DNA from: Candidatus Heimdallarchaeota archaeon | GTDB lineage: Archaea > Asgardarchaeota > Heimdallarchaeia > Heimdallarchaeales > Heimdallarchaeaceae | Assembly: GCA_019057375.1 (NCBI GenBank) | Contig: DXJF01000050.1 | Span: 64,001-128,000, forward strand | DNA length: 64,000 nucleotides | Direction: 5' to 3' | Shown: positions 67 through 6,114 of the stretch, piece after piece | How the letters are laid out: each line of letters starts with the position of its first letter | Position numbering within the stretch: the first letter of the stretch is position 1 | Made by a program: the position numbers and the translations under genes | The notes under the pieces: model-generated | The model's database searches: none | Seen by the model: the letters and a program-made list of their open reading frames with translations, nothing else | What the model was told of the DNA's origin: nothing

Positions 67-426
67 TCAAGCTACTTTTGCTGCAAGTCTTGCTGTAGTA
101 GCATAAGCTATGTCTTTCTGTATATTGGCTGGAGACCAAGAAATTACACAACCCGCCCATTTTGGACAACGGGCAACAATTAAATGTCCTTGACCGCCCA
201 TGTTGGTTGAGATCAATCTCTCAGGAGTCATTGTGATTACTGTAAATTTTAAACCTCCACCAAAATCAATGCTTGGTTTTTGATTTTTCCATGAATCGAA
301 AGGTATTGTAGGGTCAACAGCCCAGTCACCATATTGAAAATAACATTTCAAATCATCCCCAATTAACCAAACCACTCCAACAGTTCCTTCTTGAGCAGCT
401 ACTGCAACATCGTCTTGAAAACTCAT
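67..426 (-). CDS. Asgard-type profilin (actin-monomer-binding protein)
   Basis: 119 aa. The layout is an N-terminal helix, GVVWLIGDDLKCYFQYGDW, KFTVITMTPERLISTNMGGQGHLIVARCP and a C-terminal helix. This matches the Asgard profilin pattern (KY/F-x-I-x-x-T-x-ER-x-I-x-TN-x-x-G-x-GH) as recalled. Confidence 0.85.
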   Translation of the reverse strand: MSFQDDVAVAAQEGTVGVVWLIGDDLKCYFQYGDWAVDPTIPFDSWKNQKPSIDFGGGLKFTVITMTPERLISTNMGGQGHLIVARCPKWAGCVISWSPANIQKDIAYATTARLAAKVA

Positions 427-509
427 GATTCTTTCACCATTTCTGAATTAATCTATTCCTTATTGTATTAAATATTTTTTCTTACGGGTAGATTAGTTTA
501 CCTAGTATC

Positions 510-521
510 TTAAATATTTAA
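510..521. promoter_or_regulatory. Perfect 12-bp palindrome TTAAATATTTAA; candidate bidirectional TATA box or operator between profilin and the 856-aa gene
   Basis: Seen directly in the 149-bp divergent intergenic region, flanked by TTACC...GGTAA inverted arms. Confidence 0.45.
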
Positions 522-575
522 TATGGGTAATTTAGGAACATATTTGAATACGTACAATCTTTAATCTTATTAAGA

Positions 576-3146
576 ATGTTAGACGATGAAGTAAACGTTA
601 AGAGAAGACGTATTCTCCGATTTATTAGAGATTTAGATTTACGTTACATACGTGGTTCAATTGATAGAAGAACCTATCAAACTTTAAAAAACAAATATAA
701 GGAACTTCTAGCAAATCTTCCAAAAACTATTACTGCAGACGAGGAAAAGAAAAAACTAGAAGAAACCAAACAAAAATTACCTGAAGTTGAACAAGACATT
801 CATCAAATTCAGATAGGGGAAATATCAATTCCAGCTGAAACTGAAACTGGTGAACCTCAAATTAAGACAGAAGAAGTGTCGGTACCTACTGAAGTCGAGA
901 TCGTTAAAGTAACCGAGATTCCCATTATTGAGCTTGAAGAAATCCCTCCTATTGAAATTGAAGAATTAAAAGTAAGATATGTTATGAATATGGCTATAAA
1001 GGCAGCTACAAAGACATTCGAAGAGGAAATGGCCCTAGAGCAAGAATATATGTCTGGTAAAATTGATGACCAGGAATATATGGAAAAAAAGAATGAAGTT
1101 GAAGCCAAGCAACATAAAATCTTTCAACATTTTTACAAATTATCTGAGCTATTATTTTCTGTTAGCACAGAACATTTATACAAAAACACTCACAATAATT
1201 TTCTACTTTTTAACAATGAGTTGAGTGAAAACATCAATAGGTTAAGACGTCTTGTTACAGATAAGAAAGAATTGAAGGGAATAATCTATGATATTAATGA
1301 AAGAGTGTTAAGACATCGACCTATTCTCCGAAAAGCAGCTCAAGATACTCTAAGATGGAAGGTTATTATTCAACAGGAAAGAGAAAATTTTAGAATTTTC
1401 AAGGAGAACAACATAGATGAAATTTCTGAAGCTCAGATAGATGAATTAACCAGAAAAATCAAGCAACTCGAAATTTATGAGGAGCTATTAGATGAAGATG
1501 TTAACGATTACGCTAAAGATTTGGATGCCTTGGATGTAATTTATGGAGAGCATCTACAGTTTCAAGAAATAATAACTCCTTACTTCAAAGATCTAACACT
1601 TGAGACAGAAAATCGTATTCAAAAATATAGTGAAATTATTAGTGCCCTACAATTTCGCAATCAATTAACAGTTGCAACCAGTGCATCAAGTAGGGAGATA
1701 GATTATCAGCTGTTATCAGAACTTAAAGCACTTTGGAGATATTCTGGTAAGCCTGTGATTGATGAACAAAAGGATTTAGTTGGTTTTGCAGTCGGTCCTG
1801 GACAACTAAATGAGAAATTTGGTATAATTCTAAGGCAACAACAAGAGTTATCGCTCTCTATGGTCAGAAGGATTTACGATAATATCGTAACACAAATTAG
1901 TGGAGAATCTGAACTGGAAAATGAAAAAGAGAAAAAAGAATTTTTGTTAAATGAGCTACCTAAAAATATACCACAAATGCCTTTTACATATTTAATACCA
2001 GAAGCGATCATAGAATACTGCAAGATTAAGGGTTCAGTATTAGCAGAAGAAATAATTGAAATAATTCTTCAACCTCAAAATTATCTATTTGTTCCCATTG
2101 AGAAAATAGAGAAAACGGCAAGAGAAATGAAAATAAAAAGTCAAGACATTATCCAAAATGGTGATGTACTTCCTTATTTCAATCCAGCAGAAAGCAATAT
2201 TATTAATGATAAAATTACTGAAAATAAAAATATTGCTGCAAGAAATGTTTTTGGAAAGGCAATTGGTAAAGCCCATTCTGTCATATATCACCCTATGAAA
2301 GGATACTTCCTTGTTGTAGAAAAGAAAAAAGTATCTGCTGATCTTTTTGGAATAATTTATGATTTCTTTTATGATGTTTACAACCAGCCGCTCATTACTC
2401 GAACTAAGATATCTCTTCGAGATAAAAGGAAAAAGATTCTAGAAGATTTTTCACAAGAATATGACAGAACTGAGGATGAAATAGATGATATTGAAATGCT
2501 GAAAAGGATTTTAATTGAGAAAAACTCTGGAATTCTCCCTGAAAAAGTAGAAAATTCTAAATTTTCATTATATTCAATGGGCAATGTTAGACAAATTGGT
2601 AATATGATTCAGGTTAGTTACGGTGCTCCTTCATTTGAGTTAAATGAAATTTTTGATTTAGAAGGTAAAGTAGTTGAAAATGTAAAAGGTACAGAAATTG
2701 GTATTGTATATAATTTACAACTTATGGAAAAACCCTTCCTCTATTTATGGACATCAATTGACCTATTATTAATTGCTTCTTTCATCAGTGAATTTCCAGC
2801 TTCACTGTTTGAAAAAGATCAGAATTTCATTGATAACTTAGCTATTTCTATAGGTAAACAACTGAGTATAGCTCCGCAGGTTGCACTCAGACCTGACATA
2901 GTAATGACCTTTATGAATCTCATAGGTAAAATTGGAAATCTTGCGCAAATGAAAGAAACGATGGAAAAATTCAATCCGAAAACTATAGAATTAAGCAGAA
3001 TTATTTCAGTTGATAAGCGTAAAATATTAGCTGATATAAGTGATAAAGAAATTATGGAAGAAATTTACACTGACTTTGAAGTAGGAGATGCTGAAGATGA
3101 GAATAGATTTGTTACATCTCCTGATTACTACTTAAAGGAACAATGA
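576..3146 (+). CDS. Large coiled-coil plus multi-PRC-barrel protein (CdvA-like architecture)
   Basis: 856 aa. It has two L-x-x-x-Y-x-x-G-x-I-D-x-x-x-Y helical motifs (LDLRYIRGSIDRRTY; LEQEYMSGKIDDQEY) and a long heptad-rich region. Three PRC-barrel starts are visible (YSGKPVIDEQKDLVG; ARNVFGKAIGKAHSV; LEGKVVENVKGTEIGIV). Confidence 0.7.
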   Translation: MLDDEVNVKRRRILRFIRDLDLRYIRGSIDRRTYQTLKNKYKELLANLPKTITADEEKKKLEETKQKLPEVEQDIHQIQIGEISIPAETETGEPQIKTEEVSVPTEVEIVKVTEIPIIELEEIPPIEIEELKVRYVMNMAIKAATKTFEEEMALEQEYMSGKIDDQEYMEKKNEVEAKQHKIFQHFYKLSELLFSVSTEHLYKNTHNNFLLFNNELSENINRLRRLVTDKKELKGIIYDINERVLRHRPILRKAAQDTLRWKVIIQQERENFRIFKENNIDEISEAQIDELTRKIKQLEIYEELLDEDVNDYAKDLDALDVIYGEHLQFQEIITPYFKDLTLETENRIQKYSEIISALQFRNQLTVATSASSREIDYQLLSELKALWRYSGKPVIDEQKDLVGFAVGPGQLNEKFGIILRQQQELSLSMVRRIYDNIVTQISGESELENEKEKKEFLLNELPKNIPQMPFTYLIPEAIIEYCKIKGSVLAEEIIEIILQPQNYLFVPIEKIEKTAREMKIKSQDIIQNGDVLPYFNPAESNIINDKITENKNIAARNVFGKAIGKAHSVIYHPMKGYFLVVEKKKVSADLFGIIYDFFYDVYNQPLITRTKISLRDKRKKILEDFSQEYDRTEDEIDDIEMLKRILIEKNSGILPEKVENSKFSLYSMGNVRQIGNMIQVSYGAPSFELNEIFDLEGKVVENVKGTEIGIVYNLQLMEKPFLYLWTSIDLLLIASFISEFPASLFEKDQNFIDNLAISIGKQLSIAPQVALRPDIVMTFMNLIGKIGNLAQMKETMEKFNPKTIELSRIISVDKRKILADISDKEIMEEIYTDFEVGDAEDENRFVTSPDYYLKEQ

Positions 3147-3190: not shown

Positions 3191-4072
3191 ATGAAAAACA
3201 CATTTCTAGGTTTCTTTGATCAATCTTTTGAATCATTAGACAAACTTAAAGAAAAAAATACACTTTTTCTTTTCGGCATTCCATTCGAAAGAACAAAAGA
3301 TAACAAGAGAGGGTCTAGAAAAGCTCCCAATGCTCTTAGGAAAAAATCTCTTGAGTTTAGTGCAGTTTCAACTACTTTTAACATCTACCAGAATAAAGCA
3401 AATTACTATGATATTGGAAATTTTCATCCAATTAAGGAAAAGAAGAAAATCCAAAAACTCTGGGATAAGGCTTTAGATTTGAATTCTAGAATTTTAGTTT
3501 TAGGAGGAGACCATAGTATAACTTTCGATACACTTTCTCTTGCACCATGGGATGATAAAACTGCATTAATTTGGTTTGATGCACATTCAGATCTAGCAGA
3601 TGAATATCCTCCCGGAATTTTTCAATCACATGGTACTGTTTTCGCTAATCTGAAAGACAAACTAGAACTGGAAAAAGACCAGATGCTGTTTATAGGTGGT
3701 CATGCATATACTCAAACCACCACAGAATATTTGAAGATTCAAGAAGAGACAGAAGTATTTCATGTACCAACTCAGAAGATATTTTCAAATAAGTATGATT
3801 CGTTAAAGATTATCTCTGAATTTGTTTCCAACTTTGACAGAATTTATGTGAGTATTGATGCAGATGCATTTGATCAAGCTTATGTCCCCACACTTGCTAC
3901 TATGGAACCTTTTGGATTAACTCCCCAGTTGATTGTAGAAATGCTAGAAATTATTTTACCTAGAACCAAATACGTTGACATAGTAGAATTCAGACATTCA
4001 TTCCTCAATAGAACAGCATTAAATTTTGGTGTTGGTTTGATTTTCAAAATTCTTGAATTATGGGAAAAATAA
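3191..4072 (+). CDS. speB: Agmatinase/arginase (ureohydrolase) family
   Basis: Mn-binding motifs GGDHSIT, DAHSDL, SHGT and SIDADAFD are present, plus N-terminal GIPFE...GSRKAP. Confidence 0.85.
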   Translation: MKNTFLGFFDQSFESLDKLKEKNTLFLFGIPFERTKDNKRGSRKAPNALRKKSLEFSAVSTTFNIYQNKANYYDIGNFHPIKEKKKIQKLWDKALDLNSRILVLGGDHSITFDTLSLAPWDDKTALIWFDAHSDLADEYPPGIFQSHGTVFANLKDKLELEKDQMLFIGGHAYTQTTTEYLKIQEETEVFHVPTQKIFSNKYDSLKIISEFVSNFDRIYVSIDADAFDQAYVPTLATMEPFGLTPQLIVEMLEIILPRTKYVDIVEFRHSFLNRTALNFGVGLIFKILELWEK

Positions 4073-4117
4073 CCGATAGAGAAGAAACTTTATTTTTATA
4101 TATCACATATATAGGTT

Positions 4118-4504
4118 ATGTCTCCCAAAAAAATTATTTTAACAGATAAAGCTCCAGCACCTGTAGGACCTTATTCCCAAGCAATCAAGGCTGGAAATTT
4201 CCTTTATGTAGCAGGTCAAATCCCAGCAAACCCAGCAACTGGAGAGATTTACTATGGTGATGTAAAAGTAGCTACAAAACAAGTATGTGAAAACATCAAA
4301 GCAATTGTAGAAGAAGCAGGTTACACACTTCAAGATGTTGTAAGATGTAGGGTATATCTAAAAGATATGGAACAATTCTCAAATATGAATGAAGTTTTTG
4401 CTCAATATTTCGGAGATAGCCCTCCTGCTAGAGTAGCTATTGAGGCGAAAAGGTTACCAAAGGATGTAGATGTGGAGATATCTGCAACTGCATGGAAAGA
4501 GTGA
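4118..4504 (+). CDS. ridA: RidA/YjgF/UK114 enamine-imine deaminase
   Basis: [39 protein letters not shown]. Confidence 0.95.
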
Positions 4505-4617: not shown

Positions 4618-6114
4618 CTATTTCTTCTTTTTTAAGTAGATTGCAGCTAATGCGATTAAACCAGCTATAGTAGTTAGACCAAATGGGAATGGTACAGGGA
4701 AATCGCTACGTGTTTCGACAGGAATTAAGTCTATAGAGAAAGTAAATAAGTATTGGTTACCAGATCTATCATAAACTGTCATTAAGATGTCGTGTTCTCC
4801 ATATTCTAAGAATAGTAAAGTAACTTCACCTGAATCTCCTTCAGCAGTTACTAGATTACCTTCATCTGTTTCTAATGAGATTTTCAAGACGCCGCTACCT
4901 CCAGTGTCATTAGCTGAGACTTGAAATGTTGCACTTTTGATTTCCACTTTAATAGGGATATTTTCACCGGCTAAAGGTTCAATTAACTCACCATCAACTA
5001 GTACTTTTACTATTCCTATTGGATTTATTTGTTCTATTAAAGTTATCACATATTCTGTGACTGAAAGAGTTTCGGAATACGCTGTAACTGAGATGTTATA
5101 TTCACCTACACTTGAATAAAGATGATATATGGTATCATATGATATATTTACAATCGATTGTATTCCTGATAAATCATCCCAATCAATTTCTACGAGTGTA
5201 ATATTTGAATGAGGTGCCAAAGCTACATACATTAGGCTATAATTTAGAGAATTAGTATATCTTTCTCCTGTTAATTCTACTTCAGGAGTAGTGTCTACTA
5301 TTGTTACAACATGAGCCCAGTTCTCATGTAGAATTCTACTTTGAAGAGTCATATTATCATTTTGTATTATGAAACCTCTTACTTCTACTTCTGTCCCTAC
5401 TTCAAATGAGTGATTAAAGGATATACTAACATTTCTTTCGGTTACACTCGATTCAACTAGAGAAACTGTAACATTTTGGAAATCAGTATCATGTTCCGGA
5501 GTTACTTCACGGTAACTCAACCCATATCCTGTAATATTATACTCATACATTGTCAAATTGTACTTAATTTCATTGAGTTGTGTGTAAACATCTGGGATTA
5601 GAGCAGATATAACCCTTGGTGAAATTGTGATTAAATGTGGAACGCGAAAATCATTCTCATATACTCCATATCTGACAATAAATGATATGAAATTAGAAAT
5701 TATGAAAAATGTATGATTATAATATGCAGAACCATCTGATTCTAATTCAGTTTTTTCATAATCATAGGTCATCAAGATTCCAATATTCCAAGAAAGATTC
5801 CCTACACCATCGTCACCAAATAAAATTGGAGCTGATAAATTATCTCCACCTGCAAAAGAATACCAAATTGTTACATTCTTATAGAGATCTGCTGTGTATA
5901 TTGCTCCACGACGCAATGTGATGCTTTGCGATGCTAATAAAGTGGCATTGCCATCTGTTCCTCTAAAAATGGGTTTAATATCGGCATCTAATGTGGGGAG
6001 AGAGTTTTGAGGATCATTCTGTTCACTTTTAGTAATAGTGGTTAGACTCATACTAAATACAAGAGCTAGTAGTACCAAAGGTATGACAGTACGTTTTTTC
6101 ATCAATGAATTCAC
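4618..6114 (-). CDS. Secreted, C-terminally anchored surface protein with Ig/PKD-like beta domains
   Basis: N-terminal KKR plus hydrophobic signal, many N-x-S/T sequons and a PKD-like IDWDD...HLYSSVGEYNISV segment. It ends PFPFGLTTIAGLIALAAIYLKKKK (TM helix plus basic tail). Confidence 0.75.
   Translation of the reverse strand: MNSLMKKRTVIPLVLLALVFSMSLTTITKSEQNDPQNSLPTLDADIKPIFRGTDGNATLLASQSITLRRGAIYTADLYKNVTIWYSFAGGDNLSAPILFGDDGVGNLSWNIGILMTYDYEKTELESDGSAYYNHTFFIISNFISFIVRYGVYENDFRVPHLITISPRVISALIPDVYTQLNEIKYNLTMYEYNITGYGLSYREVTPEHDTDFQNVTVSLVESSVTERNVSISFNHSFEVGTEVEVRGFIIQNDNMTLQSRILHENWAHVVTIVDTTPEVELTGERYTNSLNYSLMYVALAPHSNITLVEIDWDDLSGIQSIVNISYDTIYHLYSSVGEYNISVTAYSETLSVTEYVITLIEQINPIGIVKVLVDGELIEPLAGENIPIKVEIKSATFQVSANDTGGSGVLKISLETDEGNLVTAEGDSGEVTLLFLEYGEHDILMTVYDRSGNQYLFTFSIDLIPVETRSDFPVPFPFGLTTIAGLIALAAIYLKKKK

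Follow-up and report, generated by a model that had tools for sequence, protein, structure and literature searches.

A protein with three split PRC-like barrels encoded beside profilin in Asgard archaea: a candidate actin-system partner

Introduction

Asgard archaea possess actin, profilin and gelsolin-like proteins, and we know of no Asgard factor that sets where filaments are built. Polyproline is the classic ligand of profilin. It is bound in vitro by the Heimdall and Thor profilins, for whose polyproline-binding surface no natural ligand is known (PMC8410842). The window analysed here, a stretch of 64,000 nucleotides from a Heimdallarchaeaceae genome (contig DXJF01000050.1, positions 64,001 to 128,000), contains a profilin gene next to the gene for a protein of 856 aa. 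An earlier note on this DNA had read the two as a head-to-head pair that might link actin to cell division through a CdvA-like, PRC-barrel protein. The locus raises the question of what the large protein is, and whether its position beside profilin reflects a common function or only a common history.

Gene pair and intergenic region

The profilin ORF (67–426, minus strand) and the 856-aa ORF (576–3146, plus strand) are divergent and separated by a gap of 149 bp (427–575), which confirms the layout described earlier. The smaller gene encodes 119 aa and is an Asgard profilin, as the note had proposed. In phmmer searches against the PDB it matched the solved Asgard profilins of Odin (5zza, E 3.5e-11, the best match), Heimdall (7pbh, E 2e-5; 6yrr, E 4.5e-3) and Loki (5yed, E 2e-4; 5zzb, E 1.4e-3). 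No Pfam family, Profilin PF00235 included, matched the 119-aa protein at E ≤ 1; to our knowledge, Asgard profilins in general escape PF00235. One profilin copy was found in the window's own genome (G000), which has genes for an actin (446.7 bits) and for an Arp-like protein as well.

The spacer has a G+C content of 23.5%, and its conservation across 15 aligned genus-level loci takes the form of two separate A/T-rich blocks, one 5′ of each gene. Block A (ATTAAATATTTTTTCTTACGGGTA, 467–490), on the profilin side, is kept across these loci and likely represents a TATA-type core promoter for profilin, judging from its position about 41–54 nt before the ATG. Block B (GGGTAATTTAGGAACATATTTGAATA, 525–550), on the side of the big gene, is the best-conserved spacer stretch in all 15 loci. 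It is likely the core promoter of the 856-aa gene, whose leader would then be very short or absent. A ribosome-binding site, GGTGA (434–438, minus strand), was read from the sequence 8 nt before the profilin ATG, and the corresponding TTTCACC block is kept in the genus alignment. We suggest that the two genes are driven here from separate, back-to-back core promoters.

The note had further pointed to a perfect palindrome in the gap, TTAAATATTTAA, which is indeed present at 510–521, and to shared regulation of the two genes. The palindrome sits between the two conserved promoter-like blocks, where an operator would allow one regulator to control both genes. We consider such an operator exceedingly improbable. 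The palindrome is missing from the genus alignment in the relatives L002–L006, whose big proteins are 93–95% identical, and about 12% of such spacers are expected to hold a palindrome by chance (at least one of 12 nt in 11.6% of composition-matched shuffles of the spacer). The window contains 24 perfect 12-nt palindromes, and TTAAATATTTAA itself occurs in it once (0.08 copies expected for the exact word). Because the site is neither conserved nor unusual, it was rejected as a shared operator and appears to be a chance feature without demonstrable role. Bidirectional co-regulation is not a conserved feature either, because the divergent layout does not extend beyond the Heimdallarchaeaceae, other families having the pair in convergent or co-directional order, and because one genus subclade carries two membrane-protein genes (YhhN and YdjM) inserted between profilin and the 856-aa gene.

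Architecture of the 856-aa protein

The gene at 576–3146 encodes the Heimdallarchaeaceae form of an Asgard triple split-PRC family. Homologues of this form number 42, with lengths of about 830–890 aa, and none is annotated. Searches with the protein against the PDB, NCBIfam and Pfam returned nothing usable, and no description of this protein family or of a profilin-neighbour protein was found in the literature.

An AF2 model of the protein (pLDDT 77.7) outlines its parts, for which nucleotide positions are given on the plus strand. The N-terminal basic helices (residues 1–80, nt 576–815) are near-invariant in the family and carry a SHOCT-like R-G-S-I-D-x-x-T-Y motif. They are followed by a disordered, acidic, Pro-containing linker (residues 83–123, nt 822–944; pLDDT <50), whose length differs by up to about 60 residues among relatives, and by a long helical, coiled-coil domain (residues 125–358, nt 948–1649). 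The latter has a weak collinear match (E 7e-4) to the helical domain of distant homologues in a second Asgard family, f7. Two TPR proteins returned by an exhaustive search, P0049 and P0050, were dismissed because their match is confined to a single helical hairpin.

The C-terminal half contains three PRC-like modules, each split by a helical insert: module 1 (residues 377–526, nt 1704–2153) has strands at 393–421 and 503–520 around an insert at 427–497; module 2 (residues 545–686, nt 2208–2633) has strands at 554–582 and 663–680 around an insert at 588–660; and module 3 (residues 688–826, nt 2637–3053) has strands at 699–729 and 802–819 around an insert at 730–798. In hhalign comparisons the three modules show weak internal similarity only (E 4.8e-4 to 0.13). 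A disordered acidic tail (nt 3057–3143; pLDDT <50) ends in the conserved peptide FV(T/A)SPDYYL (F845–L853, nt 3108–3134), in which V846, P849 and L853 are invariant and S848, D850 and Y851 nearly so. The peptide is likely a docking motif for some partner.

PRC similarity of the modules

The PRC-barrel content put forward in the earlier note finds moderate support, in the form of these three interrupted PRC-like modules, from comparisons of both structure and sequence. With the full model as the query, the CdpB1/CdpB2 chains of 8qzo took ranks 1–4 in Foldseek (E 0.024–0.15; probabilities 0.93, 0.97, 0.85 and 0.60). Below them came RimM (ranks 5, 9, 10 and 27) and the reaction-centre H subunit (rank 28). 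VIA gave Z values of 7.1–8.3 to the PRC domains of RimM and CdpB, with aligned ranges that jump over the helical inserts: module 1 matched RimM 2dyi (Z 7.1, over model 375–523), and module 3 matched both RimM 2f1l (Z 8.3, 64 aa) and the Archaeoglobus fulgidus PRC1/PRC2 entry 8onw (Z 7.3, rmsd 1.7 over 57 aa), each spanning model 690–825. The three shapes nearest to module 3 in the ESM Atlas are PRC clusters; the leads of the protein-language-model atlas were low-scoring only (0.77), two of them being PRC clusters. Folded alone, module 3 gave nothing in Foldseek against the PDB and no PRC chain in VIA-align against 48,161 chains, where the best match (Z 3.4) lay on the helical insert, and the module-3 profile gave chance matches only against the PDB.

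At the sequence level, the modules with their inserts spliced out were aligned against 17 Asgard PRC proteins, with reversed sequences as controls. The E-values were 3.2e-5, 4.5e-4 and 1.3e-3, against 0.46–0.78 for the reversed controls, with probabilities of 18–73%. The first of these belongs to module 2 (probability 72.5%, 63 columns over both barrel halves) and the second to module 1 (hhalign; reversed control 0.46). The Pfam PRC model PF05239 has no match in the window's protein. Among 30 relatives, six have sub-threshold matches at the N-terminal halves of modules 2 and 3, of at best 16.5 bits against a cut-off of 21.2 bits, so the curated threshold is never reached; P0038 has such a match at the place equivalent to module 2, and four relatives have one for module 3. 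Taken with the fold matches to CdpB and RimM, the profile E-values of 3e-5 to 1e-3 point to a PRC similarity that is moderate.

The CdpB matches raise the possibility that the 856-aa protein replaces CdpB in the Heimdallarchaeaceae, its three fused barrels binding SepF and organising the FtsZ ring. Together with SepF, CdpB proteins have a role in division (bioRxiv 10.1101/2023.03.28.534520), and the window's genome has SepF and two FtsZ genes. PF05239 proteins occur in none of 30 family relatives and not in this genome, where a home-made Asgard PRC HMM run with its filters off also finds none, and they are present in families f2, f4 and f7. The top own-genome candidate of that HMM (C147:28541–29776) is an AlkZ-like glycosylase and not a PRC protein. 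The complementary pattern, however, amounts to one lineage event and not to a trend. In f7, ordinary PRC proteins (12 of 12) coexist with the triple-module protein (12 of 12), and family f5 has the triple module in 21 of 22. The 856-aa gene is not near ftsZ or sepF, and SepF binding is without support. We regard a replacement of CdpB as improbable, and any cell-division link of the profilin/856-aa pair as pure conjecture.

Family distribution and gene neighbourhood

The 856-aa family occurs as a single copy in 29 of the 30 Heimdallarchaeaceae genomes, and in 22 of the 28 that have both genes it is adjacent to profilin and divergent from it. Distant homologues with the whole triple module of about 450 residues adjoin profilin in four more Asgard families, where the gene is convergent with profilin in f7 (11 of 11), f29 and f32 and co-directional in f33. 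The synteny check proposed in the note thus shows a pairing that is conserved. A search with profile A7 found triple-module proteins in f1, f5, f7, f29, f32 and f33, and hhalign of alignment A1 against f7 covered the whole triple module (probability 97.9%, E 5.5e-13, 423–428 columns). The 856-aa protein, which has the module and is encoded next to profilin, belongs to the Asgard triple split-PRC profilin-neighbour family, defined here by these two features. Since the pair recurs in five Asgard families, the protein may be considered a candidate for a partner of actin and profilin in archaea.

This synteny argument is weakened because other genes are kept in the same ancient block: to one side of the pair lie DNA ligase, DUF167 and a 188-aa ORF, to the other an arginase-family gene. 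The arginase-family gene (3191–4072, plus strand; PF00491, E 8.5e-43), of interest here only as context, follows the 856-aa gene in nearly all family loci and in f32. Members of the block are conserved across the same classes, and the adjacency of profilin and the big gene may therefore be historical. The protein would then be a PRC/coiled-coil scaffold with a function that has nothing to do with profilin or actin, and membership of an old, slowly rearranging block would alone explain why the genes are neighbours. We take this to be a real possibility. DNA ligase, DUF167 and the arginase-family gene are kept around profilin in f1, f32 and f33; the ligase side is also kept in f4, which has no big gene; and at least 16 kb are collinear between genera of Heimdallarchaeaceae. 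The varying orientation of the pair implies that there is no shared transcription unit, and in f5 the link to profilin is lost, the orthologous clade not lying near it. On the other side, the rest of the block is dispersed in f7 and f29 and yet the pair is adjacent; in f7, no other gene of the window's region lies within 9 kb of it. The adjacency has also outlived single-gene inversions, being found in three different arrangements.

The f5 homologue was considered as a paralogue, a status that would account for its separation from profilin; this was rejected, since it falls inside the main clade (support 92/88, moderate; long branches). Its neighbours, an M24 peptidase and an AMP-binding enzyme, are uninformative.

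Polyproline tracts and proposed function

The polyproline content of the family bears on both readings of the adjacency. In the window's protein the linker has no run longer than PP, and the Heimdallarchaeaceae family reaches at most PPP, in a few relatives; the multiple tracts of P5 or longer in a disordered region that mark FH1 or VASP-type proteins are not found in it. This agrees with a merely historical neighbourhood. Against such a neighbourhood, the f7 proteins, encoded beside profilin, carry polyproline tracts: runs of P3–P8 occur in six of eight, five of which have P4–P8, and in genome G082 the f7-type locus supplies 8 of the 35 (CCN)5 matches. When profilin (alignment A5) and the full-length 856-aa protein (alignment A1) were co-folded, ipSAE was 0.00 in two runs, a value that counts neither for nor against binding.

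The reading that we favour, though tentatively, is that the 856-aa protein is the Heimdallarchaeaceae version of a previously undescribed Asgard PRC/coiled-coil scaffold, whose flexible parts would recruit partners, with profilin or profilin-actin as the leading candidate. Self-assembly of the protein, or its docking onto a polymer, may rest on the helical domain and the PRC array, by analogy with the PRC and coiled-coil parts of CdvA and with the CdpB PRC proteins. The linker, which bears polyproline in f7, and the C-terminal peptide could then recruit the partners. Observations that weigh against this reading are the lack of a polyproline run in the window's protein, the result for module 3 folded alone and the PF05239 scores below threshold, along with the conserved block and its collinearity between genera, the lost link in f5 and the YhhN and YdjM genes that separate the pair in one genus subclade.

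A bolder form of the proposal, which we rate as unlikely, holds that the family is the native Asgard profilin ligand: a self-assembling scaffold whose flexible arms would capture profilin-actin and direct where filaments grow, with docking in the Heimdallarchaeaceae through the linker or the SPDYYL peptide and not through polyproline. If true, archaea would have evolved, independently of formin and Ena/VASP, a protein analogous to them in function. A large, conserved, unannotated putative scaffold beside profilin in five families, with FH1-like tracts in one of them, offers a concrete and testable candidate. Comparing its polyproline and non-polyproline forms could show if recruitment through polyproline came first or was added later, a question that bears on the origin of regulated actin assembly before eukaryotes. 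If the link is merely historical synteny, the three interrupted PRC-like barrels would still represent a new architecture, in a family otherwise apparently without PRC-barrel division proteins.

Comparison with known systems

A close comparison is with the f7 form, which shares the homologous triple module of about 450 residues, a weakly similar helical domain and the profilin neighbour. The f7 proteins are longer (about 1,000–1,050 aa against 856 aa), and their gene is convergent with profilin, whereas the gene here is divergent. In the form described here the disordered linker precedes the helical domain and has no polyproline, and the protein ends in an additional acidic tail that carries the SPDYYL peptide, absent from f7.

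Likeness to the polyproline profilin ligands of eukaryotes, of the formin FH1 or Ena/VASP type, is found in the f7 relatives, whose genes lie beside profilin and whose disordered linker has several P4–P8 tracts. This combination suggests a multimeric scaffold with a flexible arm that recruits profilin-actin. Homology to formins or VASP is absent, FH2, WH2 and EVH domains are not detectable, and the window's protein has no polyproline tract.

The CdpB1, CdpB2 and CdpB3 proteins of Euryarchaeota (8qzo, 8onw) ranked first in Foldseek and superpose closely on module 3. These PRC proteins of archaea form polymers and serve as adaptors of the cytoskeleton. They are small single-domain proteins that pass the Pfam threshold, bind SepF, localise to the division ring and cooperate with FtsZ. 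The protein here is large and multidomain, unlike these small, stand-alone PRC proteins; it fuses three divergent, interrupted barrels to a large helical protein, and no SepF link is seen.

The earlier note had called the 856-aa protein CdvA-like; it is not a CdvA. As far as we know, CdvA belongs to TACK archaea, and no member from Asgard archaea is accepted. The genome's best match to its helical model PF18822 is residues 4–77 of the 856-aa protein, but it scores 18.7 bits against a cut-off of 30 bits, and at such scores the model is unspecific, matching also in 10 of 14 control genomes. In VIA the helical domain is matched best by the S. islandicus CdvA filament (9s9g_A, Z 10.6, 119 aa), a value within the chance range for long helices. 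The 856-aa protein is about four times larger than CdvA, has three barrels instead of one, each split by a helical insert of about 70 residues, and in its model shows the opposite domain order, the helices preceding the barrels. No cdvB or cdvC lies nearby: the neighbours are profilin, not ESCRT-III, the arginase-family gene and RidA, and the Snf7 (ESCRT-III) genes are on another contig (C132). A CdvA-like recruiter of ESCRT-III is thus a very improbable reading of this protein. The CdvA of Thermoproteota consists of a single N-terminal PRC barrel, a three-helix coiled coil, a linker and a C-terminal E3B peptide that binds the winged helix of ESCRT-III (PDB 9s9g; PMC12818579). The 856-aa protein has similar kinds of parts, combining PRC-like barrels and a long helical domain with a linker that is disordered and a conserved peptide at its end. 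Through such parts CdvA forms filaments and recruits partners, and we propose this mechanism for the 856-aa protein.

Gene pair and intergenic spacer

The first ORF of the window (67–426, minus strand, 119 aa) has no match in Pfam or NCBIfam and matches solved Asgard profilins, the best stated being Odin 5zza (E 3.5e-11), together with the Heimdall profilins 7pbh and 6yrr and the Loki profilins 5yed and 5zzb. Profilin is single-copy in this genome (G000) and in nearly every genome of the class; actin and an Arp-like protein are also encoded in G000, on other contigs than profilin. On the plus strand, an 856-aa ORF (576–3146) has its start codon facing that of profilin across 149 bp, and the palindrome TTAAATATTTAA lies within this spacer (510–521). 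The earlier note described both ORFs, the gap and the palindrome accurately, and interpreted them as a possible actin-division link. Its interpretation is supported in part, for the PRC-like character of the large protein and for the pairing, but not for the palindrome, the bidirectional regulation or CdvA membership.

The palindrome is not taken as a signal, since it is missing from the spacers of relatives whose large proteins are 93–95% identical, and when the spacer (23.5% G+C) is shuffled, at least one perfect 12-nt palindrome appears in 11.6% of cases; the window holds 24 such palindromes. Spacer conservation lies in two A/T-rich blocks, at 467–490 on the profilin side and 525–550 on the side of the large gene, and a GGTGA site precedes the profilin ATG. 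From their position and conservation, these elements would represent two back-to-back core promoters. The idea of bidirectional regulation was dropped.

Architecture of the large protein

A word-indexed search recovered 42 homologues, mostly of about 830–890 aa with a few partial, none of them carrying any domain annotation; the named sources are Heimdallarchaeota or Heimdallarchaeaceae, and one is labelled Thorarchaeota. Beyond these, exhaustive HMMER searching yielded only fragments, TPR matches judged spurious and a single distant partial protein of 511 aa. Among GTDB species genomes, the protein is present in 29 of 30 from the window's own family, Heimdallarchaeaceae (f1), with one copy each, and used as query it finds essentially nothing outside f1. 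No description of the family was found in a literature search.

According to the alignment-based AF2 model (pLDDT 77.7) and the family alignment, the protein comprises basic helices with a nearly invariant SHOCT-like motif (residues 1–80), an acidic disordered linker of variable length (83–123), long helices (125–358), three repeats (377–526, 545–686 and 688–826), each with three strands, about 70 residues of helices and three strands, and an acidic disordered tail at the C-terminal end, with the conserved terminal peptide FV(T/A)SPDYYL. The most fitting description is a Heimdallarchaeaceae variant of an Asgard scaffold family that combines a coiled coil with three split barrels of PRC-like type.

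The PRC claim of the earlier note finds support in fold matches and in alignments of spliced modules. In Foldseek, the top four matches of the full model are chains of the CdpB1/CdpB2 heterodimer (E 0.024–0.15; probability 0.93, 0.97, 0.85 and 0.60); RimM takes ranks 5, 9, 10 and 27, and rank 28 is the reaction-centre H subunit. A second look with VIA gave RimM 2f1l (Z 8.3, 64 aa), RimM 3h9n (Z 7.8) and the A. fulgidus PRC domains 8onw (Z 7.3, rmsd 1.7, 57 aa), whose alignments fall in model range 690..831 and skip the helical insert, as well as RimM 2dyi (Z 7.1) over 375..523. In the ESM Atlas, the three shapes nearest module 3 are all PRC clusters, 74–98% of whose members carry PF05239. In 6 of 30 relatives there are sub-threshold PF05239 matches (profile positions 6–35), located in the N-terminal halves of modules 2 and 3. 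When the inserts were excised and sequences of f1 and of the Asgard families f7 and f5 were aligned with 17 Asgard PRC proteins, module 2 aligned across both barrel halves (63 columns, E 3.2e-5, probability 72.5%), and modules 1 and 3 gave E values of 4.5e-4 and 1.3e-3, against 0.46–0.78 for reversed controls. However, the similarity reaches no curated threshold, and module 3 folded alone (pLDDT 86) retrieved no PRC chain by Foldseek or by unbiased VIA search. The presence of three split PRC-like barrels is thus likely, although not proven.

Conservation of the pair

Both genes occur in 28 f1 genomes and are adjacent and divergent in 22 of them (gaps of 138–383 bp), including genera in which the large protein is only 44–55% identical. 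This adjacency counts for little on its own, because a stretch of 16 kb or more, with about 14 genes, keeps its order between G000 and a genome from a different genus. Within the genus, one subclade carries YhhN-family and YdjM-family membrane-protein genes between the pair (locus L036, G037:C40, 6600–7987), and there the pair is split over contigs in several assemblies.

In f7, of the same class and a different order, profilin is met tail-to-tail by a 1,000–1,050-aa ORF in all 11 genomes, and no other gene of the window's neighbourhood occurs within 9 kb of that locus. Profile comparison showed that this ORF shares the whole array of three modules (probability 97.9%, E 5.5e-13, 423–428 columns), with a weakly similar helical domain (E 7e-4). 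A profile built from the array (A7) matches in 29/30 genomes of f1, 21/22 of f5 and 12/12 of f7, plus f29, f32 and f33, with none in f2–f4 (0/16) or in the largest Asgard family sampled (0/135). Profilin adjoins the homologue convergently in f32 and f29, and on one strand in f33, with the large gene upstream; counting f1 and f7, five families thus have the two genes side by side, in three arrangements. In f5, by exception, both genes are present and not adjacent; its protein falls in the main clade of the tree (support 92/88, long branches). Family f7 also has a second, shorter paralogue, with open frames of 532–549 aa in most of its genomes, which matches modules 2–3 only and lies away from profilin (L124–L128; e.g. 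G083:C15:5523-6287 and G080:C123:41643-42407).

The flanks are old too. In f1, f32 and f33, the profilin side of the pair holds DNA ligase, a 188-aa ORF and DUF167, and the opposite side an arginase-family gene; f4, a family lacking the large gene, conserves the ligase side too. The pair thus belongs to an ancient block, and adjacency alone is no proof of common function. In favour of a link, only the profilin-homologue pair survives of this block in f7 and f29, and the adjacency outlived in-place inversions of single genes.

In G000, the ATP-dependent DNA ligase, the 188-aa ORF and DUF167/YggU are located just upstream of the window (C150:56001-64100, L123), and the arginase-family gene with RidA at 3191–4504; parts of the block are common to f32 and f33, which belong to other classes. 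Farther upstream are a ParA/MinD-type ATPase and a protein matching the IFT52 GIFT-domain (E 3.5e-11). The minus-strand gene at 4618–6114 encodes a probable surface protein of 498 aa, whose N-terminus resembles a signal or anchor sequence; it has weak repeats of PKD/filamin type and a hydrophobic anchor at the C-terminus, and it is kept in the same block in other genera.

Polyproline tracts

In vitro, the profilins of Heimdall and Thor archaea show weak binding to VASP-type polyproline, with no native ligand known (PMC8410842). Among the full-length f7 proteins, 6 of 8 present runs of at least three prolines in the disordered stretch before the three modules, five of these six with P4–P8 runs and L101 with six runs; in genome G082, 8 of 35 (CCN)5 matches come from the f7-type locus. 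These tracts are a hint of a profilin link independent of gene order. No run longer than PPP occurs in f1 members and the f32, f33 and f29 proteins are without polyproline runs; the hint does not extend to the 856-aa protein. The recurrent adjacency and the tracts in the sister family make a functional connection with profilin or actin plausible, though tentative and unproven for the window's protein.

Only two ORFs of G000 have a run of five prolines. One directly follows the main ftsZ gene (C12:9841-11007) at about 11078–12196 of C12 (plus strand), and its C-terminal PPPPP could serve profilin as a docking tail, next to a division gene. The other, of 308 aa (C47:34168-35091, minus strand), has a hydrophobic segment at the N-terminus, a coiled coil and an extended Pro-rich region containing PPPPP; it is another candidate polyproline ligand.

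Division context and comparison with CdvA

PF05239 proteins were found in 0 of 30 f1 relatives and not in G000, where a search without filters by a custom HMM of Asgard PRC proteins likewise gave no PRC protein; Pfam-detectable ones are present in f2, f4 (10/12) and f7 (12/12). In f1, the CdpB-type adaptors usual in division may be absent or diverged beyond recognition. G000 has SepF and two FtsZ genes. These observations would allow a replacement of CdpB by the large protein in f1, but f7 has both PRC proteins and the three-module protein, so that one lineage alone underlies the pattern. Any role in division is speculative.

For the helical domain, VIA ranks the CdvA filament of S. islandicus first (Z 10.6, 119 aa), with a score that is common for long helices. 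The best match of the CdvA Pfam model in G000 is the large protein (residues 4–77), at 18.7 bits versus a 30-bit cut-off, and this model also responds in 10 of 14 control genomes; the ESCRT-III genes are on another contig. We therefore rejected membership in the CdvA family, from which the protein also differs by a reversed domain order and by three barrels in place of one. Its parts are nevertheless of like kinds to those of CdvA, perhaps with a like way of working (PMC12818579).
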